64,000 nt of DNA, from NCBI GenBank assembly GCA_965198355.1, contig CBDAPI010000015.1, positions 922,608-986,607 of the forward strand, in the 5' to 3' direction. Position 1 is the stretch's first letter. The number at the start of each line of letters is the position of its first letter. The position numbers and the translations under genes are program-made. Shown in pieces: positions 5,253 through 24,900 of this stretch. A model generated the notes under the pieces. That model did no database searches and was not told where the DNA came from. It was given only the letters and a program-made list of their open reading frames with translations. The DNA comes from Acidobacteriota bacterium. GTDB taxonomy: Bacteria > Acidobacteriota > UBA6911 > RPQK01 > CBDAPI01.

Positions 5253-5283
5253 TCAATATCGCAATTTTATCTATGTAGAGGAT

Positions 5284-5565: not shown

Positions 5566-5933
5566 TGAAGGCAGAACTGAAGCAGCTTTTTGAAAAAGCA
5601 ATTGTCTTTACGGGATATTTTACCGGAAAGTCCGCCGTTTGAGTATAAATAGTTCTATCCTCCAATCAATGATAAAGTATGTAACGCGTCTTGACATCTT
5701 AAATGTCTGGGGGTTTCCTGTTGCTCTGTTGGTTACCAGTTTAGCTATTCATAGCCCTTTCCTAATAACGGACTACTTCGGTGAGCAAGATGCGGCCCGG
5801 ATTGCCAATGACAGCATCATAGCAGCTTATGATGGTTACTTTCATGATCAGGGAGCTTCGGTCAGAGGTGGACCCGGAAAACTGGACCATTTGTTAAGGT
5901 GGCTCCGACCTGAATCAGAAAGGATGAGGAGTC

Positions 5934-6215
5934 ATGGCAAAACGAAGGAATTTCTCAGCTCAGTTTAAAGCGAAGGTGGCGCTGGAAGCGCTTCGAGGCG
6001 AACGCACCCTGAGCGAGTTGGCGGCTCGCTACGAGATCCATCCGAGTGTGATCACGAATTGGAAAAAGCGGGCCAGGGAAGGTCTGGGCGATGTGTTCGC
6101 GGGCAAGGTTGAGAAGCGTCAGAGAGGAAGCGAGGCGGAGACCAAAGAGCTTTATGCCAAGATCGGCGAACTGACGGTGGAAAAGGATTTTTTGTCCAAA
6201 GCGCTCGATCGCTGA
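5934..6215 (+). CDS. IS3-family transposase OrfA
   Basis: MAKRRNFSAQFKAKVALEALRGERTLSELAARYEIHPSVITNWKK. Confidence 0.85.
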   Translation: MAKRRNFSAQFKAKVALEALRGERTLSELAARYEIHPSVITNWKKRAREGLGDVFAGKVEKRQRGSEAETKELYAKIGELTVEKDFLSKALDR

Positions 6216-6286
6216 GTGTAAAGGCCAGAAGGGCCACGATCGAGCCAAAGCACCCGAGGCTGAGCATTCGTAGACAATGCAGGCTG

Positions 6287-7135
6287 ATGAGTCTGAACCG
6301 TTCGACTTTGTACTATGAGCCCAAAGGCGAGAGCGAAGAAAACCTGCAACTGATGAGACGATTGGACGAGCAGTTCTTAAAGACCCCCTACTACGGATCC
6401 CGGCAGATGGTCTATCACTTGAAACGGCGGGGCTCTCGGGTAGGCCGCAAGAGGGTTCGTCGTCTGATGGCCAAAATGGGCCTGGCGGTCATCTATCAAA
6501 AGCCGCGGACTTCACAGCCTCACCCGGAGAATCGAGTGTATCCGTATCTTCTTCGAGGATTGGCGGTCACCCGGCCCGATCAGGTGTGGTGCACGGATGT
6601 CACCTACATCCCGATGCGTCGGGGCTTTTTGTACCTGGTGGCGATCATGGACTGGTACAGCCGCTGGGTTTTGTCCTGGAGGCTGTCGAACACGCTGGAG
6701 CCGTCCTTTTGTTGCGAAGCACTCGAGGAAGCGCTCAACAGGTACGATCCCCCGGAGATCTTCAATACAGACCAGGGGAGTCAGTTCACCAGCACGGAGT
6801 TCACGGGACTACTCAAAGGGGCCGGGGTGCGTATCTCGATGGACGGGAGAGGCCGCTGGATGGACAACGTCTTCATCGAGCGTCTGTGGCGTTCACTCAA
6901 ATACGAATGCGTCTATCTGAACGCTTTCGAAACCGGGTCGGAAGCCCGTCAAGGGATCGGCCATTGGATCGACCTATACAACAGCGAGAGACCTCACTCG
7001 GCGCACGCTGGGGCGACGCCGGAGGAGGTGTACACTGGCTTGAAAAAACATTCTGAGAGGGACCTTGCCCTCAGGCTCGCCCCCTCTCAGAATTTCCCTT
7101 ACTGGCGGCAACAAGAACTGCGGAGTCCACCTTAG
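6287..7135 (+). CDS. IS3-family transposase OrfB (DDE integrase); true start upstream via frameshift
   Basis: QVWCTDVTYIPMRRGFLYLVAIMDWYSRWVLSW...FNTDQGSQFTS...ERLWRSLKYE. Confidence 0.85.
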   Translation: MSLNRSTLYYEPKGESEENLQLMRRLDEQFLKTPYYGSRQMVYHLKRRGSRVGRKRVRRLMAKMGLAVIYQKPRTSQPHPENRVYPYLLRGLAVTRPDQVWCTDVTYIPMRRGFLYLVAIMDWYSRWVLSWRLSNTLEPSFCCEALEEALNRYDPPEIFNTDQGSQFTSTEFTGLLKGAGVRISMDGRGRWMDNVFIERLWRSLKYECVYLNAFETGSEARQGIGHWIDLYNSERPHSAHAGATPEEVYTGLKKHSERDLALRLAPSQNFPYWRQQELRSPP

Positions 7136-7603
7136 AAATGCCGCCAAGTGGTCCAACCGATGGGGTCCACCTCTGTCTACTCCACCCCACTGTATCTACA
7201 TATTCCACAGATTAGCCTTCAGTCTGGTCTAATCGTCGCTTCAGATATTCCTTTTTGGATGGCGTTGGCCAGCTTGATCGCCAGCGCCACTGTCACGGTG
7301 GCCTTGTATATCTTTTTATACCGTTTGACTAAGAGTCTTCCGGTGGCATTAGGAGCAGCCTTAGCTCTGCAGCTGAATCCAACCTTCTGGTTCAATAGTG
7401 TATATGGCTTTGCTACAATTGTGGCCCTGGCTTTATTGTTAGTTTCCTTAGTTTTGTTTCAGGAGGTCTTAGAAAGTTCAACCTAAAATATTTATTCTAT
7501 GGTGGCGCCTTTCTCATGTATATATTGGCAGTCACCACCAAGATAGATACTATATTAGCCACTGCTATATTCTGCTTGCCGGTCTGGTCCTCTGAACGTT
7601 CGG

Positions 7604-9248
7604 TTAATGCTAACCCGGATTATGCAAGAGATCTGAATCCGAGTGAGATTTGGGTCCAGAAAAAAAGCCGTAGCTCTCTGATATAAAAGGGTTTACATAA
7701 AAACAACCCTAAACAGGAGCTACGGCTATGTTGAAAACAGTCTGCCAGAATACCCTGCCATTTCACAGCCACAGAGACATCACAGCTCGTTTTGATGGGG
7801 GGAGCCTCACTTCCGACGCAGGATGGTTGTTGTTTGGATCGCTGGATCGGCAACATCGATTGTGCGAGGGCTTCAGTTCGTGTATTGCGGAAAGCCGGGA
7901 CCGACGCTACATTCGTCATGACCTGTTGAAGTTGATCCGACAACGAGTGTTGCAGATCGTGGCCGGCTACGAAGACTGTAATGACGCCGATACGCTGCGC
8001 TCGGATCCGATGCTCAAGACAGTCTGTGATCAGTTGCCCGAGAGCGATCCCGATTTGGCCACCCAGCCGACTTTCTCCCGCTTGGAGAACTCCGTCACCA
8101 AGAAGGATCTGATGCGTCTGAGCCGGTGGCTGCTACGCCGTTATGTGCGCTCCCTGAAGAAGAGACGTCCCGCCAAGATCATCCTGGATCTGGACAGTAC
8201 CGACGACCACACTCACGGCCAACAGGAGTTCGCCTTCTACCACGGGTATTACCGAAACCACATTCTGCATCCTTTGCTGATCTTCGATGCCGCCACGGGA
8301 GACCTGGTCTGTGCCGTGTTGAGACCTGGCAACAAGGGGGCTGCCTCTCACATCGTGCCCATTCTGAAGCGCGTCGTGGAGGCCATCCGACAAGCAGTGG
8401 GGACGGATGTCGAGATTGAGATTCGGGCCGACAGCGGCTTTGCCACGCCTCGGCTCTACGAGTTCTGTGAAGGTGAAGAGAATCAACTCCAATATGTCAT
8501 TGGGTTAAGTCGCAACCCTCGCCTGCAGCGAGTGGTCGAGCCCCTGCTGGATTCGACTCGGGAAAGGTTCGTTGAGCGGGAGGAAAAACAGCGTCAGTTT
8601 GACGAGTTTCTTTATCGAGCCAACAGCTGGGATCGATCCCGTCGCGTCATTGTCAAAGTGGAGGTCGATCAGCGCGGGATCAATCGTCGCTTTGTGGTCA
8701 CCAACCGGGACGATCTCTGCTCCCAATCACTTTATGACCACTACACCGACCGAGGGCAGACCGAGAACTTCATCAAGGCCTTTAAGAATCATCTGAGCAT
8801 GGACCGACTCAGCTGTCATCGATTCCTGGCCAACCAGTTTCGACTCCTCCTGCATGCACTGGCTTACCAGATGTTCGTGCGCCTGCGCGACTATCTGCAC
8901 GGAACCCCCTGGCACAAGCTCGAAATCGAAACCTTACGTCGTCGTGTCCTCAAGATCGGGGCCCGGATCCGACAAACCACTCGACGCATCTGGGTCCATC
9001 TTTCCTCAGCCTTTCCCGAACAACCCCTCTTTCACCTCGTCTTGAGTCGCCTGAACTCCAGCTAGCTTCTCCCAGTTCCCCGAAAAACCGCTTCCGACAC
9101 TCATCCAGGCCCAGATCTGTCTGAAATTCACTCCCCCAACCACTCAAACGCCTCGCCAACCGATATTCTTCGCAAATCCGCCTGTCACAACTGCCCGCTT
9201 CCGAGTTGGGCCACTTCTCGAGCCCTTTTTCAACAGCGGATTACGGTT
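7604..9248 (+). mobile_element. IS1380-like (IS4-superfamily DDE) insertion sequence, copy 1
   Basis: ends TA(A/G)CCCGGATTATGCAAG ... CTTGCATAATCCGGGCTA; ~1.65 kb; >99% identical to the inverted copy at 20286-21952. Confidence 0.8.
7728..9065 (+). CDS. IS1380-family DDE transposase (445 aa)
   Basis: N-terminal ...ARFDGGSLTSDAGWLLFGSLDRQHRL... signature and a D..D..E core; differs by 2 aa from the copy at 20493-21830. Confidence 0.8.
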   Translation: MLKTVCQNTLPFHSHRDITARFDGGSLTSDAGWLLFGSLDRQHRLCEGFSSCIAESRDRRYIRHDLLKLIRQRVLQIVAGYEDCNDADTLRSDPMLKTVCDQLPESDPDLATQPTFSRLENSVTKKDLMRLSRWLLRRYVRSLKKRRPAKIILDLDSTDDHTHGQQEFAFYHGYYRNHILHPLLIFDAATGDLVCAVLRPGNKGAASHIVPILKRVVEAIRQAVGTDVEIEIRADSGFATPRLYEFCEGEENQLQYVIGLSRNPRLQRVVEPLLDSTRERFVEREEKQRQFDEFLYRANSWDRSRRVIVKVEVDQRGINRRFVVTNRDDLCSQSLYDHYTDRGQTENFIKAFKNHLSMDRLSCHRFLANQFRLLLHALAYQMFVRLRDYLHGTPWHKLEIETLRRRVLKIGARIRQTTRRIWVHLSSAFPEQPLFHLVLSRLNSS

Positions 9249-10149
9249 CTTGCATAATCCGGGCTAAGGTGATTTGGGTTGCCGCGTTGGTCGCATGTAC
9301 CGGTACCGTTTTCGTAACTTTTAATCAATATGCTCACTTTTTATCGCCTGATAAGACATCAATTGGCCATTGGAGTGATTATGGATCTGCGTTTCTTGTT
9401 GGTATTGAAAACCTTACCTCAAGGAGTAATCTCAGGACGATAGCTAAATCGGTAGGTCTTTTGAGTATTCCGGCAGCGTTGATCGCCATCATAATTACAG
9501 GATGGCAGCGTAAATGGCAGCTAACAATGTTTTGGTTGATTATGGCCGCCCTTCCAACTGTATTATTTTGGAGCATGATATCGGGAAATAGTGCCCGGCA
9601 TAATCTGATCCCAGGCGTATTTGTGTACGTTTTATTAGCATTACCATTTGCAACCCGCTTACGGCGAGATTGGGTCTACATTCTTGCCATCATCTTTGTT
9701 GTTAATTATTTGTACTATCCGCCCTCAGACAATACTGTTTCTCCTTCTGGCGGATTATTAGGAAATGCGCGTTTACTCAGAGACAGGGCAGAAGAGTACC
9801 ACACTCTGGGAGAAACGATTGCCCACTCAGCTCATCAAAAGATGGCAGTTATAGGAATCGGTTATAGACAACCCTATTTCATATTTGAAACGCTTCGAAG
9901 CCCTCAACTTTCCTATAATAGCCACAAAACAAATTTAAAAAAGGTGCAAACCTTGGAAATGAAAAATGACAACCAGAACCAAACCTTCCTTTGGATATAT
10001 GACGAACCAGAAATATCGGAAATTGTAGAATTAGTCAACAATGGCTATTCCGTAATTGTTATTGATAATGATGAGATGGATGAGATGTTAAAAGAGTTGG
10101 GTAACCTGCCGGAACTTCAAGGCAAGTTGGTGTCAATTGATGTGGAATA

Positions 10150-10400
10150 GGGACGCCAGGAATAGTCCTGTCCGAAAGAGACCGCCCCACTACTGTCCGC
10201 ATCAAACCCGGGGTTCTTCTCCCAGACGACGCCGACTCCTCCGTTGATGTTGAACTTGACGGCGTCGGTGTTAACGAGTTTGACTCCCAGACCACCGGTT
10301 GGGGCGATCCACTAGTCGATCAACTTGAACTCGTCGCTAAGATAGTCAATTCCGCCAAACACGAAAACTCTTTCGCTGAGCAGATAATCGTCTCGAAAAG
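10150..10400 (-). pseudogene. possible fragment of a DUF481/MipA-like outer-membrane beta-barrel gene (in-frame stop)
   Basis: minus-strand translation ...WIAPTGGLGVKLVNTDAVKFNINGGVGVVWEKNPGFDADSSGAVSFGQDYSW. Confidence 0.25.
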
Positions 10401-10410
10401 ACAGGGATGC

Positions 10411-10647
10411 GTGAACAAGGCTGACCTCTTCCGCATCAAGGGAGTCGGCGAAGAGTATTCAGACCTGCTCGAGGCCTCGGGCGTGGATACGGTTCCGGAG
10501 CTGGGTCAGCGCAACGCTGCCAACCTGCACAAGAAAATGGCAGAGGTCAACGGCAAGAAAAAACTGGTTCGCCAGCTCCCAGCGGGCAGCCAGGTAGCCG
10601 GCTGGGTCAAGCAGGCCAAGAAGCAGCCTCGAGTCATCACGTACTGA
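10411..10647 (+). CDS. DUF4332 (helix-hairpin-helix-like) small protein
   Basis: ADLFRIKGVGEEYSDLLEASGVDTVPELGQRNAANLHKKMAEVNG. Confidence 0.5.
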   Translation: MNKADLFRIKGVGEEYSDLLEASGVDTVPELGQRNAANLHKKMAEVNGKKKLVRQLPAGSQVAGWVKQAKKQPRVITY

Positions 10648-10781
10648 GCTCGCGCGGCTCTTCGGTCAGATGGTTCAGGATTCCAGCGGTCAGCAGCAAT
10701 GAGACACATTGAGCCTCGCGCTGCCAGGCTTGTCCGAGGGTGTCATCACGAATCCCGCCAAGGAGAAGCTCGCCCTGGAAG

Positions 10782-11699
10782 CTAGTGACCCGGGCTGCTT
10801 TCCGCCTTTTCGATGACTACCCAGAGGGCCTTGTGGTCGGTGAAGTCCAAATCGACCAGTCCCCGCTCCAGAGCACGAAGTCCCTTCAAGAAGATCCAGT
10901 CGAGCTTCAGGGGGGGAAAGTCGAAGGTTGCGCCTGTGTCTCTGAAAGGTGTCGTGAATCCCATCTCCTTCATTGCGTTTCTCAGGGCGCGAGTGTCCCT
11001 CCCCCCAAACGGAATAGGCACTGAGCTTCGAATCCAGAGCATGTTGGCTGTGTTGAAGTCACCCGCGATCAGGCTGGGCCCCTCGGCCTTTCGACCGGCT
11101 TCCATGACAGGGCGGACCTGGCGAACGCGCCGAGAGGCATTGATCCTCGTGTCCAGGTGGACGTTGAAGAGCTTCAGGGTTCCTGAATCGCTGGTGGCTA
11201 TTGCTGCAAGTGCGATCCGGCATCGGCTCCGGTGACCGAGGTTGTTCTGGGGAAGGAGTTCGACGCGCTCAGAGGTCAAGGGAAAACGGCTGAGAATCGC
11301 CAGACCCCAGTCCTGCGCAGGAGCGAACAGGTAGTGGAAGCCGATGGCTTCGGAAGCCTCTTCGAGCAACCTGGGTCCATCCTCTTTCAACTCTTGCAGG
11401 AGGAAAACATCGGCTTCGGCAAGCTCAGGACTGGCTTCCAGTTCGCTGTGCACGACTTCCCAGTCGCTTGCGCCGTGCATGTTCAAGCTGACCACCCTAA
11501 GAGCCGTACCGGCCTGCTTGGCGGCCTGCTGCGACGGAGTCCCACGGGAAATGGGAGGTACCTCGCACTTCGGCAAAGAAGGAGCGGCGCTGAGAGGGCC
11601 GCTTGCCCACGCCAGGCTCGAGAGCAGGATCAGTGCGCATGGAACTAGCGAAAAGCCTGCGCCCTCCTTTGGCGGCGGCTGTGGCGTTTGGACTCTCAT
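10782..11699 (-). CDS. secreted endonuclease/exonuclease/phosphatase (EEP) family protein
   Basis: signal peptide; VVSLNMHGASDWE...FLLQE...FNVHLD...IAGDFNT are EEP motifs. Confidence 0.7.
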   Translation of the reverse strand: MRVQTPQPPPKEGAGFSLVPCALILLSSLAWASGPLSAAPSLPKCEVPPISRGTPSQQAAKQAGTALRVVSLNMHGASDWEVVHSELEASPELAEADVFLLQELKEDGPRLLEEASEAIGFHYLFAPAQDWGLAILSRFPLTSERVELLPQNNLGHRSRCRIALAAIATSDSGTLKLFNVHLDTRINASRRVRQVRPVMEAGRKAEGPSLIAGDFNTANMLWIRSSVPIPFGGRDTRALRNAMKEMGFTTPFRDTGATFDFPPLKLDWIFLKGLRALERGLVDLDFTDHKALWVVIEKAESSPGH

Positions 11700-11724
11700 T
11701 TCACCTCCAGCGAGCCTTTCAACC

Positions 11725-12666
11725 CTACCGGCTTTGACAGCGAGCCTTCAACTGCAAAGCTGCCTCCGAATCGTAGGAGATGGTTCCCTGATCGAAGACA
11801 AGTCCTGATTCGCTGATGGCCTCAAAATACAATTCCTGAGAATTCAGCTCTATGTACAGAAAGCTGCGCTCCTGATCGTTTCCACACCCGGTGAGTAGCG
11901 ATTTCTTAGAGATGTTGCCCTTGCGCAGCTTGGCCGCCGCTCCGTTGACGAAGTGCAGAATACCCTGCTGCGGTTCGAGACGTGCGTAAAAGTGATCGTG
12001 CCCGGCCAACACGATGTTCACCCGGCCCTCCACCAGGATCTCTTCCAGAGATCGCCTCACATTCTTGTTTCCGCCGTGCCGACGCCCGGAAGAATAAATG
12101 GGATGATGGAAAAAAGCGATTCTCCAGCGCGCACGTGAAGCCCTTAATTCGTCTTGAAGCCATGCCTCCTGTTGCGGGTCCGGAGAACCGCCCCGATGCT
12201 TCTTCGCAAGGGTCGTCGTATCGAGAGCGAAGAACTGGACCAGGTCATCCCCAAACTGGAACGCGTAGTAGCGCCGCCCACCCATGTTGAACAGGGGGTA
12301 TTCGATCGCCTGCCGCCAGTTACCCCGTCGAACATCGTGGTTACCCAGGGCGGCAAAGAACTTGACTCCACTGGAGTGCAGCGGCCCGTACGGCTGCTCG
12401 AATTTCTTCACGTAATCGCTGCGGTTCCCATGCTCGTAGATGTTGTCTCCCAGCATGAGGACAAAATCGAGCCCCCGCTCCCTGTAACGATCCAACATCT
12501 GGCGGGCAATTCGATACTGCGGTTTTTTCCCCGTGCCACTGTCTCCGATCACCGCGAAACGGAGCTTGTCGTCTTCGGCCTGTTGCAACGTGCCGACAGC
12601 GCCAGAAGCCGTTAACCACCCGGACAGGACGACTGTTAGAAGGAGGATCGAACTGGAGTGCTTCAT
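11725..12666 (-). CDS. secreted metallophosphoesterase (calcineurin-like/purple acid phosphatase type); likely start at MKHSSS (ORF-track start 12768)
   Basis: FAVIGDSGTGK...MLGDNIYEHG...GNHDVRRG...AGHDHFYAR. Confidence 0.75.
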   Translation of the reverse strand: MKHSSSILLLTVVLSGWLTASGAVGTLQQAEDDKLRFAVIGDSGTGKKPQYRIARQMLDRYRERGLDFVLMLGDNIYEHGNRSDYVKKFEQPYGPLHSSGVKFFAALGNHDVRRGNWRQAIEYPLFNMGGRRYYAFQFGDDLVQFFALDTTTLAKKHRGGSPDPQQEAWLQDELRASRARWRIAFFHHPIYSSGRRHGGNKNVRRSLEEILVEGRVNIVLAGHDHFYARLEPQQGILHFVNGAAAKLRKGNISKKSLLTGCGNDQERSFLYIELNSQELYFEAISESGLVFDQGTISYDSEAALQLKARCQSR

Positions 12667-12845
12667 GCTGGGCCCCCCCTGCTTCGGGTGATCCCCCGGG
12701 GTCCCCAGACAATTATTGGGAAGGACGATCTGAACCCCTTCCAGAGGATCGCCGTTTGCGTACCACAAGAGCAGATCGATGCGACGCGGCGCTTAAAGAT
12801 TCTTGATAATCGAATACCATACGTTCGATTTTCAAGAAACCCTCT

Positions 12846-13706
12846 TCAGCAGGGCCGTAGCTTCTTCTTGAACTCCGCTGGACAGACTCCGCAGTTCTTG
12901 CGGAAGGCACGTTCGAAGCTACGGAGACTGGGGAACCCGACCTCCAGCGAGATAAACGTGATGCTGTAATTGTTCTTGGACAAGAGCTCGATGGCCAGGG
13001 CCAGACGAATCTGTTCCAGCCAGTCTCGGAACCCGAGGCCAACTTTACGATGGAAAAAATCAGAGAAGTAGGTGGCCTCCATCCCGGCGATCCGGGCGCC
13101 GTCAGCCAGGCTGATGGGATCGGAGGAGTTCGCGAGAACGTGGTCCTTGACCCTGCGCAGACGAGAGTAGTAGCTAAAAGCTTCTTCGGTTACGCTCCGG
13201 CCTCGAAGCAGAGGAGGGGTGCCAAGATTCTCCCCTCTTCCGCCAGCGGCCTCCCCTTCTCCGCTGGGGTAGCGAACCAGCTCGGGAGCTCTTGAAAAGG
13301 AGACCACGGTGTGCCCAGGCCTCGGAGATGTCCCGTAACCAGATATCTTCAAAAAGGTCGGTCCATTGGTGGTGGACCAGCGCAAAGAAAGCTCAATTCT
13401 CTCCCTGCGCTTCAGAGGGTGCTCAGAAATGCAAACCACCTCAGAAGAGCTCAAACTGCTGGTTTGGACAGGGAGTTTCTTCCTACTGCCGTTCACCCGA
13501 CAGGTGCCAACTAGACTCGTCGGCGAGGGCAGCAGGTCATTCAGCATTTTGAGTGGAGCTGGCTGGCCGACTTCGCGGCTAAAATCAGAAATGGACAAGA
13601 CTACTGGACTGCCTCCCTGTGTCGTCTCTAAGTGATAAAATCTAAAAAAGGGACGGTTTACCAGAGCTCCGTCTCCGGACAAACATCGGATTCGGCTTAG
13701 CGTCAT
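12846..13706 (-). CDS. AraC-family transcriptional regulator (C-terminal HTH); N-terminus uncertain
   Basis: C-terminal ...NYSITFISLEVGFPSLRSFERAFRKNCGVCPAEFKKKL. Confidence 0.55.
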   Translation of the reverse strand: MTLSRIRCLSGDGALVNRPFFRFYHLETTQGGSPVVLSISDFSREVGQPAPLKMLNDLLPSPTSLVGTCRVNGSRKKLPVQTSSLSSSEVVCISEHPLKRRERIELSLRWSTTNGPTFLKISGYGTSPRPGHTVVSFSRAPELVRYPSGEGEAAGGRGENLGTPPLLRGRSVTEEAFSYYSRLRRVKDHVLANSSDPISLADGARIAGMEATYFSDFFHRKVGLGFRDWLEQIRLALAIELLSKNNYSITFISLEVGFPSLRSFERAFRKNCGVCPAEFKKKLRPC

Positions 13707-14523
13707 CCACTGCGGGAGATTGATCAGATGCTTCCCACAGCGGACTCTTGGGTCACCGTCCCTTATAAAAACTGCAGCTATGGCTGCTACTTAAGAATGT
13801 CTTCCTGAACCAACAGGGAATTCATCCCTGGCCCAGCCGCGACACTCTGCTTCAGGTTCTTGGTTCTTGGTTGAAGAACCCCCCATTTCTTCGAGATAGT
13901 TTTCACCTCAGAGCGATTGGGTTTGAAAATCGTCCATTTCACTCTATAAGTGTTTTGCGCCGCTCCCGCCTACTAGAATCCGCCCTCGTGATGGGTGACT
14001 CAAAGCGATTTCAATGAGGTCAACCCGCCGGAGATACTGAAAGACGCGCGAGGAGGCAGCTGATTGCTCCGGCCCCAACTGCACTCGCAACACAGCGTAA
14101 AGAAACCCTAACCACCGGAAGTGATACCAAAACTTTGTAGGTGGAGACAGAGGTTTTTCCGAGGGCAACATTCGCTGCTGACCTCATGAAGGTGTGGGGG
14201 CCTTGCAAGGTGTCAACAGCCTGAGCAGCCAGGGAACCCAGCGTATCTAGTTCATTCTGCAGGGGATAGAGCTTATTGCACACTCGGTTGGAGGGCCTTT
14301 TGAAGAGTTCATCATGATCCTCACGGCAGCAATTATTGACGATCTGAAAGAAGTGGACGCCGGCTCCGCTGAACATTTCTCCGCCCATATGTGCAAAAGG
14401 TCGATTTGGGCGAGTTTTGTGACGCCGGTCACCGATATCACCCGATCTGCTTTGCCGCACTTTAGCGTCGCCGTGCGTCCGATCACAGGCCTCTGACGGA
14501 AAAGCCAATAAGTTGAGCAGGCG

Positions 14524-14892
14524 ATGAGCCAGCTTTCCAAGTTCCTGAGAGAGAGGCTGTCCGACCGTGGGAGCCAGCTGAGGTTAGCAGAAGCACTGGG
14601 GACCAGCCCGGGAACCGTGACCAAATGGGTGAGTGGAGAGAACACTCCCAACTTTGAGAGCTGCTTGAGACTCGCCGATTACCTTGGGGTTGAACCCGCT
14701 CGCATCTTCCGCTTGACCGGCAAGATGGACTATTACCAGCTCTACTTGCGAGCGTTCAAAAGGGCTGAACTCCAGACCAGATTACATACTCGCCTTCAGA
14801 ACCTTCTCGATGGGGGCCATATTGCCGATGTCGAAGACGTTCTGGCCCGGTTGGAAAAGGCCTCTGTAACCAAAGCAAAGAAACGGTCGTAG
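14524..14892 (+). CDS. XRE-family HTH transcriptional regulator
   Basis: LRLAEALGTSPGTVTKWVSGENTPNFESCLRLADYLGVEPARIF. Confidence 0.65.
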   Translation: MSQLSKFLRERLSDRGSQLRLAEALGTSPGTVTKWVSGENTPNFESCLRLADYLGVEPARIFRLTGKMDYYQLYLRAFKRAELQTRLHTRLQNLLDGGHIADVEDVLARLEKASVTKAKKRS

Positions 14893-15232
14893 CGAGCAGT
14901 CGTCCAGACACCATCGACCTCTGAAGCGTGAGTCACTGGATCTGATTCACGGGAGCCCCTTTGCTCCCCTTTTGCTCTATCTCCAACCTCGACGTTCTTT
15001 CGTAAACCCACACAGCAAAGATTCATTTGTCAGTTCGTAAGGGGGATCACAGCTAACCTCCGGGCCCCCGGTCTAGAATCCCAGCAGAGATGGGGTTGAC
15101 AACAAGAGGTTACTCGCGCGGGAGGACGACAGGGCGGTCCTTTCCACATAGCGACGCTGCGGATTCTGGTTCTGTCAAGAGGCTTCCAGGGAGACTGCTC
15201 CGATTCCAGAAGTTTCGAGCGGAAGATCATCG

Positions 15233-18010
15233 GTGCCATCTGTTAGAGTCTCCAAGGATGTGTATTTGGTCGCACTTTTCCCGTCGCACTTTTCCCTTAG
15301 AATAATTCAGTTCACCAACTTGCGTATACCTCTGGTCTTTTCCTTTATCCTGTCCTTCGGCTCGGCAATGGCTCAGTCGGTTGAGCTGGAGTGGGATCCG
15401 AACTCGGAGCCGGATCTGGCTGGATACAACGTTTACCGTTCGCTTTCATCCGGCTCCGGCTACTCCATCGTCAATCCCAGCCTGGTCCCTTCGCCATCGT
15501 ACACGGATACTACGGTCACCCCGGGTAATACCTATTATTATGTTGTCACCGCTCAAAACACTGGTGGCTTGGAGAGCGGTTTTTCCAATGAAATCAATAC
15601 CTTTATAGAGGGGCTTCCCCCAACTGCGGCGCTGACGCTGGTGAAGTCGTCGGATGCAACGTCTGCGCCGGCAGTGGGGGAGACCATCACCTATTCCTAT
15701 GTGGTCACGAACAGCGGCGAGGTGACGCTAACCGGTATTACGGTCACGGACGTTCATGGCGGCATCGGAGGGTCTTTCTCGGGAGTGAGTTGCCCAGCCA
15801 CGAGCATAGCCGTGGGTGACTCCATGACGTGTACAGCAACCTATGTGCTGGTGCAGGCAGTAAATGCAGGTTCGATTTCCAATACAGCCACAGCTGACAG
15901 TAACGAGACCGGCCCGGTGCAGGCAGACGTAAATGCAGGTTCGATTTCCAATACAGCCACAGCTGACAGTAACGAGACCGGCCCGGTGAGCAGTTCTTTG
16001 ACGGTGTCACTTTCCCCGAATGCGGCGCTGACACTGGTGAAGTCGTCCGATGCAACGCCTGACCCGGCAGTGGGAGAGACTATCACCTATTCCTATGTGG
16101 CCACGAACGGCGGCGAGGTGACGCTAACCGGTGTCACTGTCACGGACGTTCATGGCGGCATCGGAGGGTCTTTCTCGGGAGTGAGTTGCCCAGCGACGAG
16201 CCTGGCCGTGGGTGACTCGATGACATGCACAGCAACCTATGTGCTGGTGCAGGCAGACGCAGATGCAGGTTCCGTGTCCAATACAGCCACAGCTGACAGC
16301 AACGAGACCGGCCCGGTGAGCAGTTCTTTGACGGTGTCACTTTCCCCGAATGCGGCGCTGGCACTGGTGAAGTCGTCGGATGCAACGCCTGACCCGGCAG
16401 TGGGAGAGACTATCACCTATTCCTATGTGGCCACGAACGGCGGCGAGGTGACGCTAACCGGTGTCACTGTCACGGACGTTCATGGCGGCATCGGAGGGTC
16501 TTTCTCGGGAGTGAGTTGCCCAGCCACGAGCCTAGCCGTGGGTGACTCCATGACGTGTACAGCAACCTATGTGCTGGTGCAGGCAGACGTAAATGCAGGT
16601 TCGATTTCCAATACAGCCACAGCCGACAGTAACGAGACCGGCCCGGTGAACAGTTCTTTGACGGTACTGATAACCACTACTTTTCTGGTCCTGCCGACGA
16701 CCTTCGACCTGGGAAGTCCGGAATTTGAAGATACTTTCGTGGGTGCCGCAATCGCCAACCTTTCGGACCAGCCCGCCCACGTCGTCGTCTCTGCTCTGAC
16801 GAGCTTCGGGACCGAGGTTGCGAGCCAGCAACTCGGTGACGAGCTATTGGCCATGGGACAAGACGCATTCCTGACCACAGACCACCCCGAACTGGTGGAA
16901 GGCTCGAGCTCCTGGCTCCTGAGGGGAACCTCAGCAAAGGTGCGGGGATTTTTCATGATCGGCGACCGGGATATGAACAAGCTCGACGGGATCGGCGGCG
17001 AACTTGATGAATCGAAGTCACTGTTCTTCCCGCTGGCCAGAGAAAGCGCGGCTGGGAGCACCCTCCTTCATCTCTTCAATGTCGAGAAACAAGCGGGAAC
17101 CGTTACCCTCACTCTCTTCGAGCCTCTGGGGATCCCAGTCGCAGAGGCGGAGATCACGGTCGCACCCTCGGGTGGCGTACAGGGAACGATGGAAGAGATC
17201 TTCGGGGCGGGCCTCGAGTTCTCCGACGGGTACCTGGAGGTTCAGAGCAGTGTTCGGCTCAAAGGATTCGAGTTCTATGCGCAGGAGGGCGCATTTGCAG
17301 CCGTTCCCGGCCAAGCACCGCAGCCGACCTGGAAGCTGTGGACTCCTCATTTCTTTGTGGAGGGCCAGTCTGGTGACACCGAAATCCGCTTGTTGAGTAC
17401 GGATTCCGAAAGAGCCCGCGTCAGCATCCAGGGGTTTGACAACGAGTCCACTTTGATTGGAACCTACGAGCTCGAGATCGAGCCGGGACAACTCTTCGTC
17501 GGAAGTGTCCGGGAGATGCTCAACCTGGACCCCGGAATGGGCGTGATCACAGGCCACCTCGAGATCAGCCTGGAGGCCGGAACTTTCTTTACCTATTCCC
17601 CACAAGTATTGGGACTGGTCACTTTCAGCGCTAACGGAGGCAAATGGCTCTCGACCCTGCCCCTGCTGACCGAAGGACATAAAGAGACCCTGTTTCTCCA
17701 GGTGGCCCAATCTGATCAAATCGGGATGTTCACCGGCCTCGCCGTTCTCAATCCGGGTGAGTCGGCGGCGCAGGTAGAAGTCGAGGTTTTCGATCAGAAC
17801 GGGATCCGAACCGGCCGCGCCGGATTCAGCCTGGCTCCGGGTCAACGTGTGTTGAACTTGCTGGACGGGGACACTTATTTCGGAGACGGCTTCGAACAGA
17901 TCAAGGGACTCTTTCGAGTCAGGAGCACGGTTCCGGTCCTCAGCTTTTCACTCTTTGGAGACTACGGACTCCGGTTTCTTTCAGCGGTGGAAGGGCAGTA
18001 CCCGGAGTAG
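15233..18010 (+). CDS. 925-aa secreted surface protein: N-terminal FN3 domain, 3 tandem DUF11/TIGR01451-type 'conserved repeat domain' copies, and C-terminal unnamed modules shared with 21958-26544 and 29278-31755
   Basis: FN3: VELEWDPNSEPDLAGYNVYRS...NTYYYVVTAQN; DUF11: GETITYSYVVTNSGEVTLTGITVTDV...SCPATS..GDSMTCTATYV x3; C-terminal ...FTGLAVLNPGESAAQVEVEVFDQNG... Confidence 0.8.
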   Translation: MPSVRVSKDVYLVALFPSHFSLRIIQFTNLRIPLVFSFILSFGSAMAQSVELEWDPNSEPDLAGYNVYRSLSSGSGYSIVNPSLVPSPSYTDTTVTPGNTYYYVVTAQNTGGLESGFSNEINTFIEGLPPTAALTLVKSSDATSAPAVGETITYSYVVTNSGEVTLTGITVTDVHGGIGGSFSGVSCPATSIAVGDSMTCTATYVLVQAVNAGSISNTATADSNETGPVQADVNAGSISNTATADSNETGPVSSSLTVSLSPNAALTLVKSSDATPDPAVGETITYSYVATNGGEVTLTGVTVTDVHGGIGGSFSGVSCPATSLAVGDSMTCTATYVLVQADADAGSVSNTATADSNETGPVSSSLTVSLSPNAALALVKSSDATPDPAVGETITYSYVATNGGEVTLTGVTVTDVHGGIGGSFSGVSCPATSLAVGDSMTCTATYVLVQADVNAGSISNTATADSNETGPVNSSLTVLITTTFLVLPTTFDLGSPEFEDTFVGAAIANLSDQPAHVVVSALTSFGTEVASQQLGDELLAMGQDAFLTTDHPELVEGSSSWLLRGTSAKVRGFFMIGDRDMNKLDGIGGELDESKSLFFPLARESAAGSTLLHLFNVEKQAGTVTLTLFEPLGIPVAEAEITVAPSGGVQGTMEEIFGAGLEFSDGYLEVQSSVRLKGFEFYAQEGAFAAVPGQAPQPTWKLWTPHFFVEGQSGDTEIRLLSTDSERARVSIQGFDNESTLIGTYELEIEPGQLFVGSVREMLNLDPGMGVITGHLEISLEAGTFFTYSPQVLGLVTFSANGGKWLSTLPLLTEGHKETLFLQVAQSDQIGMFTGLAVLNPGESAAQVEVEVFDQNGIRTGRAGFSLAPGQRVLNLLDGDTYFGDGFEQIKGLFRVRSTVPVLSFSLFGDYGLRFLSAVEGQYPE
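15620..16675 (+). repeat. three ~330-bp tandem coding repeats with near-identical nucleotide sequence (DUF11 units)
   Basis: 16017-16345 vs 16347-16675 almost base-identical; first unit 15620-15990 more diverged. Confidence 0.75.
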
Positions 18011-18014
18011 GTTT

Positions 18015-18040
18015 GGGAATTGCGGATTTCGGATTGATCC
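18015..18040 (+). repeat. heptad array (GGAATTG-CGGATTT-CGGATTG), 5 nt after the stop of 15233-18010
   Basis: gggaattgcggatttcggattgatcc. Confidence 0.7.
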
Positions 18041-18676
18041 GTGAGTTTAAGGGCGTATCTAACATTTCTGAACTGGGCGTCGCTACTGTCAGGAGATCTT
18101 ACAAATCGGCCGGATTCTGTTATCTGACCTGTTTTCAATCGTTTTGGACAATGTCGTTTCGGTGGTTGACGAGATAGTGTCGGAATGACTTACAAGAGTC
18201 CATTCACGGGTACGCTTGTGACCGATGCAGGTTCCGGAACATTCCCTTTGGAATCACGGTGCTAGCCATTCGGCACGGCGCCGGCACGAGAGTTGCTTCT
18301 GTGGATCTGGGAGCACATTCTAGCGAGATGTGGCGCCACCGCCCTTCCCCCAAGAAACGGGGCGCCTCAGGTGAAGCCCAGGATTAGAGGGGGCCTGGGC
18401 CCACCAACTCTTGACTGTCACTTGTGACGTTTCTTGTTATACACCTCGGTTGTCTGTGGAATGGTGTCGGCCATCACAACCTTCCCGAGAACCGAGTACC
18501 AATCACCACAACGGCACGACGAGCACATTGCTTGTCTCCGGCCTGGGATTTCCTATAATGCATTTCTAGAAAGCGTCAGCTGACAGGACACCCATCACTT
18601 CATTCAAAGCTGAAACGCTGAAGCCGGGGAGGGATTGTTCAAGCGCTCTGAGGAGCGTGATGCAGACGGACAAAGC

Positions 18677-20257
18677 ATGTTGATACTCGGAATTGGAGGC
18701 TGGCTACATGATGGTTCGGCGGCGCTAGTCCTTGACGGTGAGTGCATTGCCGCGATCGAAGAAGAGAAGTTGCTGCGCCAAAGGCACCCTGGTGGTTTTC
18801 CGGGCCGGGCGACGACGACCTGTCTAAAGATCGCCGGGGCCCGTCGAAAGGATGTCGACATAGTTGCCCTTTCAAAGCCTCTTGACGCCGGGAAAGAGGC
18901 CAGTGCGCTTCTGCATTTGAAGACACTCTTCCCCAATTCGAAAACGGTTATCGTTGATCACCACACAGCGCACGCTGCAGCTGCCTTTTTCCCTTCCCCA
19001 TATGAGAATTCCCGTGTCCTAACGTTGGATCACCATGGTGACGTTTGTTGTGGAACGATTTGGCAAGGTGCGGGGAATCAGTTGCAAACGATAGACGCAA
19101 TCTACTATCCAGACAGCCCGGCAGCTCTCTATACCAAAGTCACAGAGTTGGTAGGCTTTAAGCCCGACTCCGAAGAGCACAAGGTCCAGTGGCTGTCGGT
19201 CACTGGAGAGCCACGGTTCAAGGAGCTGTTTCTAGCGATCCTTGGTATGGGCCGAGATTCGCTCCCGAAGCTTGACCATAGCTATTTTGATACTGGACGC
19301 GCGACCCATGGCGGCTTTAGTGAGCGTTTCTATCGTGAGCTGGACATCAATCTCGATGAGCCCTTGGGCGAGGACATCAAAGCGGATCTGGCGGCGAGCA
19401 TCCAAACAGCCGTTACAGAGACCGTTCTGCGCATGGCTGGAGAAGGAAAAAACATCTGCCTTGGGGGCGGTCTGGCCTACAACGCCTTGCTGATCCAGAG
19501 CATTGAGGAGGCCGGTCGGTTTGAAAACGTATGGATCCAGCCGGTGACAGGGAACGCTGGGATATCGCTTGGCAGCGCCCTGTACGCACTCCATCAGAGC
19601 CAGTCCGACGCCAAAAGGCACGTCTTGCGCAACATCTTCCTGGGGGAAGAGTATGGTAGCGAAGAGATCAAGCGGGTGCTGGAGAATTGCAAACTGCGGT
19701 TCGGCTACCATCAGAGTAAGAGCGAGATGGGTAAAGCTGCAGTGCAGCAACTGACCGACAATAAGATTGTGGCATGGTTCCAGGGCCGAACTGAGTTTGG
19801 TCCTCGCGCACTAGGAAACCGCAGTATTCTGGCCTCTCCTCGCAATCCCTACGCGACACAAAACCTCAACGAGTACATCAAACATCGTGAACCTTTTCGC
19901 AAGTTTGCGGCCTCGATTCCAGAAGAGCTGGCCTCTCAGTACTTTGAGGTTAGTGACAATTCCCGGTTTCTGGCGACGGTAAGCCGCGTCAAGCCCAGTC
20001 ATCAAGAAACATTCAGTCCGGCTTTGCTGGAGGGTGACAGAATTCGGGTCCACGTGGTCTGCAAAGAGGAGAATCAGCTGTACTGGGAGCTCTTACAGGC
20101 GGTAGGGAAAGCGAGTGGACTGCCTGTTGTCTACAACACGTCATTCAACCTCTTCGGAGAGCCATTGGTCTCGGATCCTCGCTCAGCGGTTCGAAGCTTC
20201 TACTCTTCGGGAATCGATACCCTCTTCATCGGGAACTTTGTCGTAGAGAAGAAGTAG
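18677..20257 (+). CDS. NodU/CmcH-family carbamoyltransferase (likely start MLILGIGG; ORF-track start 18635)
   Basis: MLILGIGGWLHDGSAALVLDGECIAAIEEEKLLRQRH...CLGGGLAYNALL. Confidence 0.8.
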   Translation: MLILGIGGWLHDGSAALVLDGECIAAIEEEKLLRQRHPGGFPGRATTTCLKIAGARRKDVDIVALSKPLDAGKEASALLHLKTLFPNSKTVIVDHHTAHAAAAFFPSPYENSRVLTLDHHGDVCCGTIWQGAGNQLQTIDAIYYPDSPAALYTKVTELVGFKPDSEEHKVQWLSVTGEPRFKELFLAILGMGRDSLPKLDHSYFDTGRATHGGFSERFYRELDINLDEPLGEDIKADLAASIQTAVTETVLRMAGEGKNICLGGGLAYNALLIQSIEEAGRFENVWIQPVTGNAGISLGSALYALHQSQSDAKRHVLRNIFLGEEYGSEEIKRVLENCKLRFGYHQSKSEMGKAAVQQLTDNKIVAWFQGRTEFGPRALGNRSILASPRNPYATQNLNEYIKHREPFRKFAASIPEELASQYFEVSDNSRFLATVSRVKPSHQETFSPALLEGDRIRVHVVCKEENQLYWELLQAVGKASGLPVVYNTSFNLFGEPLVSDPRSAVRSFYSSGIDTLFIGNFVVEKK

Positions 20258-20263
20258 AGAAAA

Positions 20264-20287
20264 GGAAATCCGAAATCCGAAATTCCC
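20264..20287 (+). repeat. heptad array (GGAAATC-CGAAATC-CGAAATT), 7 nt after the carbamoyltransferase stop and abutting the IS end
   Basis: ggaaatccgaaatccgaaattccc. Confidence 0.7.
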
Positions 20288-21952
20288 GTGCTAGCCCGGA
20301 TTATGCAAAAACCGTAGTCCGGTGTTGAAAAACGAGTCGAGAAGTGGCCCAACTCGGAAGCGGGCAGTTGTGACAGGCGGATTTGCGAAGAATATCGGTT
20401 GGCGAGGCGTTTGAGTGGTTGGGGGAGTGAATTTCAGACAGATCTGGGCCTGGATGAGTGTCGGAAGCGGTTTTTCGGGGAACTGGGAGAAGCTAGCTGG
20501 AGTTCAGGCGACTCAAGACGAGGTGAAAGAGGGGTTGTTCGGGAAAGGCTGAGGAAAGATGGACCCAGATGCGTCGAGTGGTTTGTCGGATCCGGGCCCC
20601 GATCTTGAGGACACGACGACGTAAGGTTTCGATTTCGAGCTTGTGCCAGGGGGTTCCGTGCAGATAGTCGCGCAGGCGCACGAACATCTGGTAAGCCAGT
20701 GCATGCAGGAGGAGTCGAAACTGGTTGGCCAGGAATCGATGACAGCTGAGTCGGTCCATGCTCAGATGATTCTTAAAGGCCTTGATGAAGTTCTCGGTCT
20801 GCCCTCGGTCGGTGTAGTGGTCATAAAGTGATTGGGAGCAGAGATCGTCCCGGTTGGTGACCACAAAGCGACGATTGATCCCGCGCTGATCGACCTCCAC
20901 TTTGACAATGACGCGACGGGATCGATCCCAGCTCTTGGCTCGATAAAGAAACTCGTCAAACTGACGCTGTTTTTCCTCCCGCTCAACGAACCTTTCCCGA
21001 GTCGAATCCAGCAGGGGCTCGACCACTCGCTGCAGGCGAGGGTTGCGACTTAACCCAATGACATATTGGAGTTGATTCTCTTCACCTTCACAGAACTCGT
21101 AGAGCCGAGGCGTGGCAAAGCCGCTGTCGGCCCGAATCTCAATCTCGACATCCGTCCCCACTGCTTGTCGGATGGCCTCCACGACGCGCTTCAGAATGGG
21201 CACGATGTGAGAGGCAGCCCCCTTGTTGCCAGGTCTCAACACGGCACAGACCAGGTCTCCCGTGGCGGCATCGAAGATCAGCAAAGGATGCAGAATGTGG
21301 TTTCGGTAATACCCGTGGTAGAAGGCGAACTCCTGTTGGCCGTGAGTGTGGTCGTCGGTACTGTCCAGATCCAGGATGATCTTGGCGGGACGTCTCTTCT
21401 TCAGGGAGCGCACATAACGGCGTAGCAGCCACCGGCTCAGACGCATCAGATCCTTCTTGGTGACGGAGTTCTCCAAGCGGGAGAAAGTCGGCTGGGTGGC
21501 CAAATCGGGATCGCTCTCGGGCAACTGATCACAGACTGTCTTGAGCATCGGATCCGAGCGCAGCGTATCGGCGTCATTACAGTCTTCGTAGCCGGCCACG
21601 ATCTGCAACACTCGTTGTCGGATCAACTTCAACAGGTCATGACGAATGTAGCGTCGGTCCCGGCTTTCCGCAATACACGAACTGAAGCCCTCGCACAATC
21701 GATGTTGCCGATCCAGCGATCCAAACAACAACCATCCTGCGTCGGAAGTGAGGCTCCCCCCATCAAAACGAGCTGTGATGTCTCTGTGGCTGTGAAATGG
21801 CAGGGTATTCTGGCAGACTGTTTTCAACATAGCCGTAGCTCCTGTTTAGGGTTGTTTTTATGTAAACCCTTTTATATCAGAGAGCTACGGCTTTTTTTCT
21901 GGACCCAAATCTCACTCGGATTCAGATCTCTTGCATAATCCGGGCTAGAATC
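20286..21952 (-). mobile_element. IS1380-like insertion sequence, copy 2 (inverted relative to copy 1)
   Basis: ends gcTAGCCCGGATTATGCAA (20283-) and CTTGCATAATCCGGGCTAg (-21952); internal sequence is the reverse complement of 7604-9248. Confidence 0.8.
20493..21830 (-). CDS. IS1380-family DDE transposase (445 aa), copy 2
   Basis: identical to 7728-9065 except for 2 substitutions (N/K, T/R). Confidence 0.8.
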   Translation of the reverse strand: MLKTVCQNTLPFHSHRDITARFDGGSLTSDAGWLLFGSLDRQHRLCEGFSSCIAESRDRRYIRHDLLKLIRQRVLQIVAGYEDCNDADTLRSDPMLKTVCDQLPESDPDLATQPTFSRLENSVTKKDLMRLSRWLLRRYVRSLKKRRPAKIILDLDSTDDHTHGQQEFAFYHGYYRNHILHPLLIFDAATGDLVCAVLRPGNKGAASHIVPILKRVVEAIRQAVGTDVEIEIRADSGFATPRLYEFCEGEENQLQYVIGLSRNPRLQRVVEPLLDSTRERFVEREEKQRQFDEFLYRAKSWDRSRRVIVKVEVDQRGINRRFVVTNRDDLCSQSLYDHYTDRGQTENFIKAFKNHLSMDRLSCHRFLANQFRLLLHALAYQMFVRLRDYLHGTPWHKLEIETLRRRVLKIGARIRQTTRRIWVHLSSAFPEQPLFHLVLSRLNSS

Positions 21953-21957: not shown

Positions 21958-24900
21958 GTGTTGTCGAGTCTGTGGAAATGGGCTCCCCGGGCCGGCTTTT
22001 ATTTGGGGGAGGCGCTTGGGTTCCTGGTATCGGTGGGGTTGCTGGCTGCCTGCACCGAGAGGGGCCCCAGACCTGTCTTGTCCGAGGTTCAGTTGGGACA
22101 AGCTGATGCTCCAGGTGGTTCCTACCAGGAGATCCGTCCCGGACCTTTCAGCTTTCATCCCAACCTCGGGCAGTTTGAAAGCGACGTGGAATTCGTAAGC
22201 CGCAGCAGGGATTCGATGCTGCTCTTCAAGACAGACGAATTCCAGTTGTTTTCCCGCTCGACGTCTCTCTCTCACCAGCCGCTGCACAAGGCGCTCACCA
22301 TGAGGCTCGTCGACGCCGATCCCCGCGCCACGGTCCGCGGCCAGAAGCAACTTCCCGGAATAGTCAACTACCTTCGGGGAAATGATCCTGCAAGATGGCA
22401 GACGGCTCTCAAGACCTACCAGAGAGTTCATTACCAGAGCGTCTACCCTGGGACAGACCTCCTTTTCTATGGAACGTCCAAAGATCTCGAGTACGATTTT
22501 GTCCTTGGCCCCGGGGCCGATCCGGAGCAGATTCGACTTCGCTTCGATCACCCGGTCGAAATCGACAGCTCTGGGGATCTTTCCGTAGCGACCCCAGCGG
22601 GGATCCTCAAGCTTCGCCGGCCTGTTACCTACCAGCATAGGCTGGGGACTCAGCAGGAGATTCCATCCCGGTACCGAAGACTCGAGGGCGGGGATGTCGG
22701 GTTTTGGATAGGCGACTACGACCGGCGCTACGCTCTGACGATTGATCCTGTGGTAGTGCTCTCCAGCTTCCTGGGAGGCGGAGAAGCGGACTCGGCTTCA
22801 GGTGTTCAGGTGGACGCGCGGGGCGATATCTACATTACGGGCCTAACTTCTTCCATCAACTTTCCCACCAGCGCCGGAGCCTCTCAACAAGCCCCTGCCG
22901 GGGGAGCGGACATCTTTGTCACCAAGCTCAACGCCCAGGGCGATTCAATGATTTACTCCACCTACGTGGGTGGTGAAGGGGACGATCTCCCTGCGACGCT
23001 TGGCATTGATTCCTCTGGAAATGTTTACGTGACCGGCCAGACGACGTCGCAGGATTTCCCGGTGGCCGGTGCTTTTCAGGAGGAATACGGAGGAGGAACC
23101 TCCGACGCTTTTCTCTTCAAGCTCAACCCCAACGGCACGGGTTTGGCTTATTCGACGTTTCTGGGAGGCCGAAGCAACGATACCGGCAACATCGTCCGGA
23201 TCGATTCTCAGGGAAATGCCTATGTGGCAGGGTTTACCCGCTCCGACGATTTCCCCGTTACTGAAGGCGTCCTGCAGCCAAATTACCGTGGAGGACTCGC
23301 CGACGCTTTCGCGCTCAAAATGAATCCCGCCGGTTCGAGTCTCCTCTATTCCACCTACCTGGGAGGGAATCGACAGGACGAGGCCCGGGACATCGGGTTT
23401 GATGCGGAAGGGAATGCTGTCGTGGTGGGTCTGACCGATTCGACCAACTTTCCCACTGCAGAGCCCTTCCAGGGGCAAAGAAACGGGCAATTCGACGTCT
23501 TCGTCAGCAAACTGGATGGGGAGGCTTCGACACTGGTTTTCTCCACCTACCTGGGAGGGAGCTCTTCGGATGTTCCTTTCGGAGCCATCGTGGACGAGGC
23601 TGGCGACATATACATCGTGGGTGAAACGGGCAGCTTTGATTTTCCCACCGAAAGCGCCCTGCAACCGGCCAAGTCCGGAAGTCTGGATGCCTTTGTCACC
23701 AAATTCCGGGGAGATGGTGCAGGGCCCATCTTCTCCACCTTCCTGGGCGGGTCCGGCTTCGACTCGGGTCGAGCCATTGACGTCACCGACAGCGGCGGTG
23801 CCGTCATTGCGGGCGTGACCACATCGGCCGATTTCCCCACCCTGGCCACTCTCATGGTCGACCCCCAGGGCACCGACGCCTTCCTGGCCGCCCTCAATCC
23901 TTCGGGCTCCGGCCTCCAGTACAGCACTTACGTGGGCGGACCGGGGACGGAGTTCGCTACTGGCCTGGCCTTGGACGCAGAGGAAAACGCTTACGTGGTC
24001 GGGTCAGTCGATCGGCCGGGTTTTTCCACGCTAGCGGCTTTGCAGGATTCTTTCGGGGGGAAAGGCGTTTTTGTGAGTGCGAACCGTGCTGGCAACTGGC
24101 AGGGTTCCGGTGAAGGCTTGAGCAACCCCAATATCGAATCCCTGGTAGTCCATCCTGACAACTCTGCCCTCCTCTATGCGGGAACCTCCGGCGGCGGAGT
24201 TTTCAAGAGCAGCGATACAGGGGAGACGTGGTCGTCCTCCGGTCTCGAATTCCAACAGGTTCTCGCCCTGGACATCGACGCCACCAATGACATCCTCTTT
24301 GCCGGGACGACTAACGGCCTCTTCAAGAGCGAGGACGGTGGAGAGAACTGGGATCAGATGAGGGAGTACCTGCCCTTTGCCGCCTTCCCGGTACTGGTGG
24401 TCGACTCCAAAGGGCCGGAAACCGTGTATGCCGGGAGCCAGGGCCGAGGCGTATTCAAGACGACCGACAGCGGAGCCAGGTGGAGAGCCATCAACAACGG
24501 CCTCAGAGGCAGCGCTCAGCAGATTCTCTCGCTGGTCATAGATCCTGGTAATAGCAGGCAGCTGTACATTGCGACTCCCCGGGCCGTCTACTCCAGCAGC
24601 AACGGCGGCGCCACCTGGCAAATGGCCGAGGCCAACCTGGAGGACTTCTCCACGATTTCGACTCTTATCGTCGACGCTGGGGGCCCGGCGACGCTCTACG
24701 CCAGCGGAATCTCAGATACGACCAGCATCCCGCCTGAATTCTGCGACTTTGCGCCCCCCTGTAACAACTTCGTTTTGAAGTCAACCGACCGCGGAACCAA
24801 CTGGGATCTGTTCGCCATGGGTGGTCCGGTGTCTTCGCTGGCCCTGGATCCGTCAAACCGATCCACCCTGTATGCCGGGACTTTCAGGGCTGGAGTCTTC

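Follow-up and report, generated by a model that had tools for sequence, protein, structure and literature searches.

Insertion sequences (ISs) of the IS1380 family are about 1.55-2.0 kb long in ISfinder and carry a single transposase open reading frame (ORF). They have short terminal inverted repeats beginning with CC and make target duplications of 4-5 bp. ISEcp1, which belongs to the family, has an outward promoter, duplicates 5 bp of its target, and can carry neighbouring DNA along by one-ended transposition. Tn5 and Tn10 are composite transposons made of inverted IS pairs. Here we describe two near-identical IS1380-family elements in a 64,000-nt stretch of contig CBDAPI010000015.1 of a Bryobacterales-related Acidobacteriota bacterium (assembly GCA_965198355.1), hereafter the window, to which all coordinates refer. 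The elements lie in inverted orientation around 11 kb of DNA. Very probably, one multicopy IS entered resident chromosomal DNA on two separate occasions, each time by simple insertion. The 11 kb between the elements is ordinary chromosome and was bracketed by accident.

Boundaries and transposases of the two copies

The window contains a single long inverted repeat, whose arms lie at 7607-9266 and 20292-21951 (1660 nt, 99% complementary, 11,025 nt apart). The ends of the elements were set by aligning both copies with their flanks and locating the terminal motif CCCGGATTATGCAA. Copy 1 lies at 7614-9263 on the forward strand and copy 2 at 20295-21944 on the reverse strand. Each is 1650 bp long, they are 99.58% identical, and 11,031 bp lie between them. 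The original prediction, made from the sequence alone, had described an IS1380-like pair of more than 99% identity in inverted orientation, and this was borne out, while its ends (7604, 9248, 20286, and 21952) were off by 8-15 nt. The 16-bp terminal inverted repeats (CCCGGATTATGCAAGA) start with CCCGG. In copy 1 the two repeats agree at 16 of 16 positions, and in copy 2 over 14 contiguous positions.

Each element has a single ORF encoding a DDE transposase of 445 aa, at 7728-9065 (+) in copy 1 and at 20493-21830 (-) in copy 2. The transposase matches the Pfam family PF13701 (488 bits against a cutoff of 34.7; 1.8e-146 for copy 1) and the NCBIfam model NF033539, 'IS1380 family transposase' (384 bits against a cutoff of 180). 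The length of 1650 bp and the one ORF also fit the size and gene content of the family, to which we assign both elements by sequence. The two transposases had been thought to differ by two residues, but they are only one residue apart (N299 in copy 1, K299 in copy 2), and the K299 variant was found again at another locus (L088, below).

Target duplications and the flanks of copy 1

Each copy has its own matched 4-bp target duplication, which could be read directly from the sequence. Copy 1 lies between CTAA at 7610-7613 and CTAA at 9264-9267, and copy 2 lies between CTAG at 20291-20294 on its inner side and CTAG at 21945-21948 on its outer side. The outermost duplications of the pair (CTAA at 7610-7613 and CTAG at 21945-21948) are unlike. 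The original prediction had named a composite transposon as one reading and had proposed a comparison of the four junctions, with a matching duplication at each copy pointing to independent insertions; such matching pairs are what we found.

The flanks of copy 1 belong to one gene, which encodes a GT-C glycosyltransferase. When copy 1 and one CTAA were removed, a 365-codon open frame ran across the junction, and a protein search with this restored frame returned four homologues of full length (499-525 aa), which cover 90-96% of it. In tblastn searches against the window, the four homologues were collinear across copy 1 as well as across an IS3-family element and a frameshift on its left. Since the outer and inner flanks of copy 1 are one gene, the interval was joined to the left flank before copy 1 came. 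Since this gene is collinear across copy 1, the 11-kb interval was not brought in as a unit.

In a composite transposon, both ISs and the 11 kb would have moved in as a single unit and would be able to move again. Both copies look functional, their transposase genes and terminal repeats being intact, and they do enclose a set of genes; inverted pairs of this kind have the precedent of Tn5 and Tn10. However, the outer duplications are mismatched and each IS has its own pair, and the inner flank of copy 1 was present before the IS. In GC content the interval (0.559) is like the chromosome beyond copy 2 (0.564), the two copies stem from different sublineages of the IS (below), and no second copy of the IS-cargo-IS unit was found among the loci retrieved. 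With matched CTAA/CTAA and CTAG/CTAG pairs and a collinear gene across copy 1, the composite transposon was not borne out and we regard it as extremely unlikely. Like other pairs of this type, the two ISs could in principle be mobilised together, but nothing supports this here.

Several points weigh against two separate insertions. Given the strong preference of the IS for CTAG, the matched CTAG/CTAG pair of copy 2 says little by itself, and the argument rests mainly on copy 1, with its CTAA pair and the collinearity of the disrupted gene. Two exact-pattern scans of JGI metagenome contigs, with junction patterns for copy 2 and copy 1, gave no match to an empty-site allele. A minority inverted isomer might be present in the population. 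Lastly, synteny was uninformative. The comparison with related genomes that had been suggested was made with the four closest of 80 loci that contain homologues of the carbamoyltransferase. At species level, the nearest genomes are Acidobacteriota/Bryobacterales metagenome-assembled genomes whose carbamoyltransferases are 86% and 83% identical in amino acid sequence, and these best two loci share the carbamoyltransferase only and no neighbouring gene, so that the comparison decides nothing.

The disrupted GT-C glycosyltransferase gene

The gene hit by copy 1 is a pseudogene of about 500 aa that remains in four pieces. Its N-terminal fragment (aa ~1-65, GC 0.45) is at 5669-5863 (+), where the homologues P0002-P0005 align in tblastn from aa 1 or 18 to aa 65. 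It is followed by a 1311-bp IS3-family element at 5864-7174 (+), which was identified by NCBIfam (IS3, 261 bits) and had its ends set from the sequence. This element carries orfA at 5934-6215 (+) and orfB at 6287-7135 (+), and it is flanked by a 3-bp duplication, GTC, at 5861-5863 and 7175-7177. The middle of the gene continues with aa 65-167 at 7175-7483 (+, frame 2) and aa 171-213 at 7486-7613 (+, frame 1), both placed by tblastn, with a frameshift near 7470-7486 (about 7484). An independent metagenome contig (L006, below) has this frameshifted sequence as well. The C-terminal fragment (aa ~210-497, GC 0.41) is at 9264-10150 (+), with a tblastn alignment at 9257-10141. The IS3-family element is a first, separate insertion into the pseudogene that was also hit by copy 1.

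The gene and its close homologues gave no match in direct Pfam, NCBIfam, and PDB sequence searches. A profile search showed that the family is small, with 272 representatives. PMT_2 matches were seen in 19 of 66 family members; these members are distant, the matches are sub-threshold to modest (best E 1.5e-6), and none is in the window sequence. A first structure model from four sequences was unusable (pLDDT 48), and an alignment of 66 sequences was used instead, which gave an AlphaFold model of P0002 with a pLDDT of 94.9. The solved structure nearest to this model is ArnT (5f15/5ezm; E 5e-7, TM 0.55), and the further top structure matches are all GT-C proteins (PglB, STT3, ALG, DPY19, and PMT). 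The family also has an invariant acidic motif, GExD, in its first loop. The identification of the disrupted gene as a GT-C enzyme is well supported by the predicted structure. Copy 1 had been said to disrupt a GT83-like gene. The disruption stands, and on the model the label holds at the level of the GT-C fold, with ArnT as the nearest structure, while membership of GT83 in the strict sense is not established.

The pieces of the pseudogene have a GC content of 0.41-0.45 and lie within a low-GC patch at about 4000-10150. As had been predicted, the fragment at the inner boundary of copy 1 is richer in AT than the interval that follows (GC 0.41 against 0.56). Left of the pseudogene, at 4722-5565, the patch contains a fragment of LPG_synthase_TM (profile positions 52-216 of 302) and a C-terminal fragment of a GDP-mannose dehydratase. 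This suggests that the low-GC patch is a decayed, horizontally acquired cluster of cell-envelope genes. The IS3-family element, the IS1380-family element, and the frameshift have all piled up in one acquired low-GC GT-C gene.

The interval between the copies and an independent assembly

The resident chromosomal interval (10151-20290, GC 0.56) was characterised by Pfam matches, GC content, and the contig L006. It encodes an endonuclease/exonuclease/phosphatase (EEP) family phosphatase with an Exo_endo_phos domain (10782-11699, -), a metallophosphoesterase with a Metallophos domain (11725-12768, -), an AraC regulator (12846-13706, -), an XRE regulator with an HTH_3 domain (14524-14892, +), a 925-aa protein with DUF7507, DUF11, and fn3 domains (15233-18010, +), and a carbamoyltransferase (18635-20257, +). 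Pfam confirmed the whole gene list of the original prediction.

L006 comes from an independent metagenome (ENA ERZ25072670) and is 99.9% identical to the window at 5864-20257. It carries copy 1, flanked by CTAA at both junctions as in the window, and the entire interval to 20257 in the same gene order. Only 37 bp separate the end of the contig from the position of copy 2. This contig bears on an assembly artefact, in which one IS copy would have been misplaced or duplicated at a repeat. The genome is rich in ISs, long-read metagenome assemblies can misjoin at repeats, and L006 stops just before copy 2. However, the seven differences between the copies form a phylogenetically sensible pattern, each copy has clean 4-bp duplications, and copy 1 was found again with identical junctions in this independent assembly. 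We give an artefact almost no credence. Further contigs that span copy 2 were sought through exact matches to the PEP-CTERM protein, the lipoprotein (including P0126), and the carbamoyltransferase from its ATG; none of these proteins was on record, and the look-up with the AraC regulator returned only a 987-bp contig.

The gene of the 925-aa protein contains near-identical tandem repeats of 330 nt (15520-16665 in the window; 3594-4908 in L006), and the window and L006 differ by roughly one repeat unit. This suggests repeat-number variation in a surface protein.

To the left of copy 1, L006 has the IS3-family element (L006 13352-14662) with 100% identity and then diverges from the window exactly at the left end of this element (5863|5864). 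Window positions 1264-5863 are replaced in L006 by about 4 kb of other DNA, and the two sequences rejoin at the IS at 166-1263. Either strains differ structurally here, with a break precisely at the IS end, or L006 is a chimeric contig of 2x coverage.

Orientation of the interval

The present arrangement is the original, uninverted one, because an inversion would mix CTAA and CTAG at the inner junctions and split the GT-C gene, and neither was seen. L006 has the interval in the same orientation as the window.

The pair could also be read as the ends of an invertible segment, in which RecA-driven recombination between the 1650-bp inverted copies flips the 11 kb at appreciable frequency, giving two isomers and possibly regulating the lipoprotein gene beside copy 2. 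Repeats of 1650 bp with 99.6% identity, inverted and 11 kb apart, provide sufficient homology, and IS-end-precise variation between strains may be seen next door, where L006 diverges at the IS3-family element. However, any odd number of flips would leave copy 1 between CTAA and CTAG and copy 2 between TTAG and CTAG on the forward strand, and it would break the collinearity of the GT-C gene. All seven copy-specific differences have been kept, with no sign of a homogenising exchange. Among the proteins of the interval and its flanks that were scanned with Pfam, there was no recombinase or invertase. This also speaks against a site-specific switch, for which the IS pair is the only inverted repeat. 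We consider recurrent RecA-driven inversion unlikely.

Inversion had been expected to swap the genes next to the lipoprotein gene. What directly adjoins this gene would stay unchanged, since each flank remains with the same IS end. The lipoprotein gene would still face the same left terminal repeat (IRL) and 1.65 kb of IS, so that any regulation must act across the whole IS. A more specific form of the idea is that recurrent flipping or moving of the 11-kb block links and unlinks the gene of the 1528-aa SBBP/BNR lipoprotein and read-through from the carbamoyltransferase side. If true, an uncultured acidobacterium would express a giant surface protein in a phase-variable manner, but we judge this very unlikely. 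Inversion through the IS pair is possible in principle, as for any such pair, and nothing supports it. The pair is a potential rather than a demonstrated substrate for RecA.

Copy 2 and the lipoprotein gene

Copy 2 abuts the gene of a putative lipoprotein of 1528 aa (21958-26544, +), as had been predicted. The protein has DUF7948, SBBP, and Sortilin/BNR repeats and a signal peptide with the lipobox LLAAC. The distance from the IS to the start codon was given before as 6 nt; the IRL end of copy 2 is in fact 13 nt from the GTG at 21958, and the outer duplication is 9 nt from it. Without copy 2, the spacer between the stop codon of the carbamoyltransferase gene (20257) and this GTG would be about 50 nt.

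No promoter-like site directed toward the lipoprotein gene was found at the tool threshold of 9/12, and our own scan gave a weak 8/12 match (CTCACT-17-CATAAT, 21911-21939) inside the terminal repeat. As this weak match was the only candidate, we make no claim that copy 2 supplies the lipoprotein gene with an outward promoter. At the right terminal repeat (IRR) there is an outward 9/12 promoter-like site (TCAACA-17-CATAAT). In copy 2 this site is directed antisense into the carbamoyltransferase gene, and its counterpart in copy 1 reads toward the dead GT-C fragment. Copy 2 probably uncouples the lipoprotein gene from upstream transcription, and the insertion, 9 nt upstream of this giant gene, probably alters its expression.

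Other copies, target preference, and sublineages

The exact transposase of copy 1 is encoded on many contigs of public assemblies. Four further copies of the element in the ENA assembly ERZ25071889 differ from copy 1 at 0-1 nt and lie at unrelated loci, each with its own CTAG duplication; copies identical to copy 1 were found at loci L001 and L002. The K299 variant (L088) is at yet another locus of ERZ25071889, with a CTAA duplication. This assembly thus has at least five further copies, four at CTAG and one at CTAA. A 4-bp target was seen at seven of seven distinct sites (CTAG at five and CTAA at two), with no obvious extended consensus. A literature search on the target specificity of IS1380 found nothing directly useful. 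The 90% protein cluster of the transposase has 181 members, and a 96% sister cluster has 1723.

The two copies in the window differ at positions 1011, 1609, 1610, 1612, 1623, 1628, and 1636 of the element. A member of the 96% sister cluster (L089) has 64 differences from copy 1 and a CTAG duplication, and it shares six of the seven states that separate copy 2 from copy 1. L088 is intermediate, with G at 1011 (K299) and a right end of the copy-1 type. The simplest reading of these states is a lineage series from an L089-like form through copy 2 and L088 to copy 1, in which copy 2 would represent a slightly older sublineage than copy 1. Because the copies sit in different sublineages, neither would be the direct daughter of the other. 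Gene conversion was considered as an explanation for the clustering of six subterminal differences and was set aside, as the lineage series fits better.

Six of the seven differences fall within 28 bp near IRR (element positions 1590-1650; window 9203-9263 and 20295-20355), where they reshape a hairpin and a T-run downstream of the transposase gene. In copy 2 and the 96%-identical relative in L089, the hairpin has a 9-bp stem (CGAGTTGGG/CTCGACTCG), and in copy 1 and the other copies the stem is GGGC/GCCC. The change looks like one remodelling event on the branch to the sublineage that is currently expanding.

Together, these copies document an active, high-copy IS1380-family element with CTAG/CTAA specificity in uncultured Acidobacteriota.

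Other mobile elements and repeats in the window

The IS3-like element seen at 166-1263 has a 646-bp 5' fragment at 33430-34075. Direct repeats of 237 bp (33184-33420 and 34076-34313, with one 1-nt indel) flank this fragment, and they are far too long for a target duplication. A match to the group II intron D1-D4 model (RF02003, 118.8 bits) is at 43678-43815 (-) and adjoins an ORF of 429 aa at 42033-43322 (-), indicating a further mobile element.

An exact 42-nt direct repeat (2704-2745 and 3758-3799, 1054 bp apart) resembles the 3' half of a tRNA, with a T-arm (CCGGTTCGAGTCCGG) and an acceptor strand. ARAGORN and Rfam found no tRNA at either repeat. The repeats may be att-site remnants of an integrated element.

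The motif CCGAAATCC/GGATTTCGG, often in tandem heptads, occurs in intergenic DNA just past stop codons at 18024, 20270, 29247-29261, 33207, 34099, 40385, 63331, and 63398. These sites include the left flank of copy 2. The motif may be a genome-specific terminator or a repetitive extragenic palindrome (REP)-like motif.

Proposed history and comparison with known systems

Copy 1 would have inserted into a CTAA inside the low-GC ArnT-like GT-C gene, which would have become a pseudogene several times over, through the IS3 insertion and the frameshift as well as through copy 1. Copy 2 would have inserted into a CTAG in the spacer of about 50 nt between the genes of the carbamoyltransferase and the 1528-aa lipoprotein. 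The resident 11 kb ended up between the copies by the coincidence of the two insertions. On the sequence evidence, the structure appears to have been built in place by two insertions, and there is no sign that it ever moved. The case calls for caution, since an inverted pair of near-identical ISs around genes can mimic a composite transposon, and the duplications and the collinearity of the flanks expose two coincident insertions.

In this IS-rich genome, the element represents a new acidobacterial member of the IS1380 family that has no name yet. It resembles the members of this family (IS1380, IS1247, IS942/IS1186, and ISEcp1) in its DDE transposase, its repeats of about 15 bp starting with CC, and its 4-bp duplication. 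The outward promoter-like site at its IRR may, by analogy, recall the outward promoter of ISEcp1. Unlike ISEcp1, it is strict for CTAG/CTAA, with 4 bp at seven of seven sites, and it shows no sign of one-ended mobilisation or resistance cargo. The gene disrupted by copy 1 comes nearest to ArnT, a lipid-to-lipid glycosyltransferase of GT83, in the best structural match of the P0002 model, and 19 of the 66 family members have PMT_2 profile matches, but its family has an extra C-terminal alpha/beta domain and the gene in the window is a pseudogene. The pair shares inverted repeats of 1.65 kb and 99.6% identity with the ISs that mediate inversions by homologous recombination, but only the ancestral orientation was observed, in the window and in one independent assembly. 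Compared with Tn5 and Tn10, it likewise consists of near-identical inverted IS copies around several genes, but it has no shared outer duplication, and the two flanks of its copy 1 are one gene.

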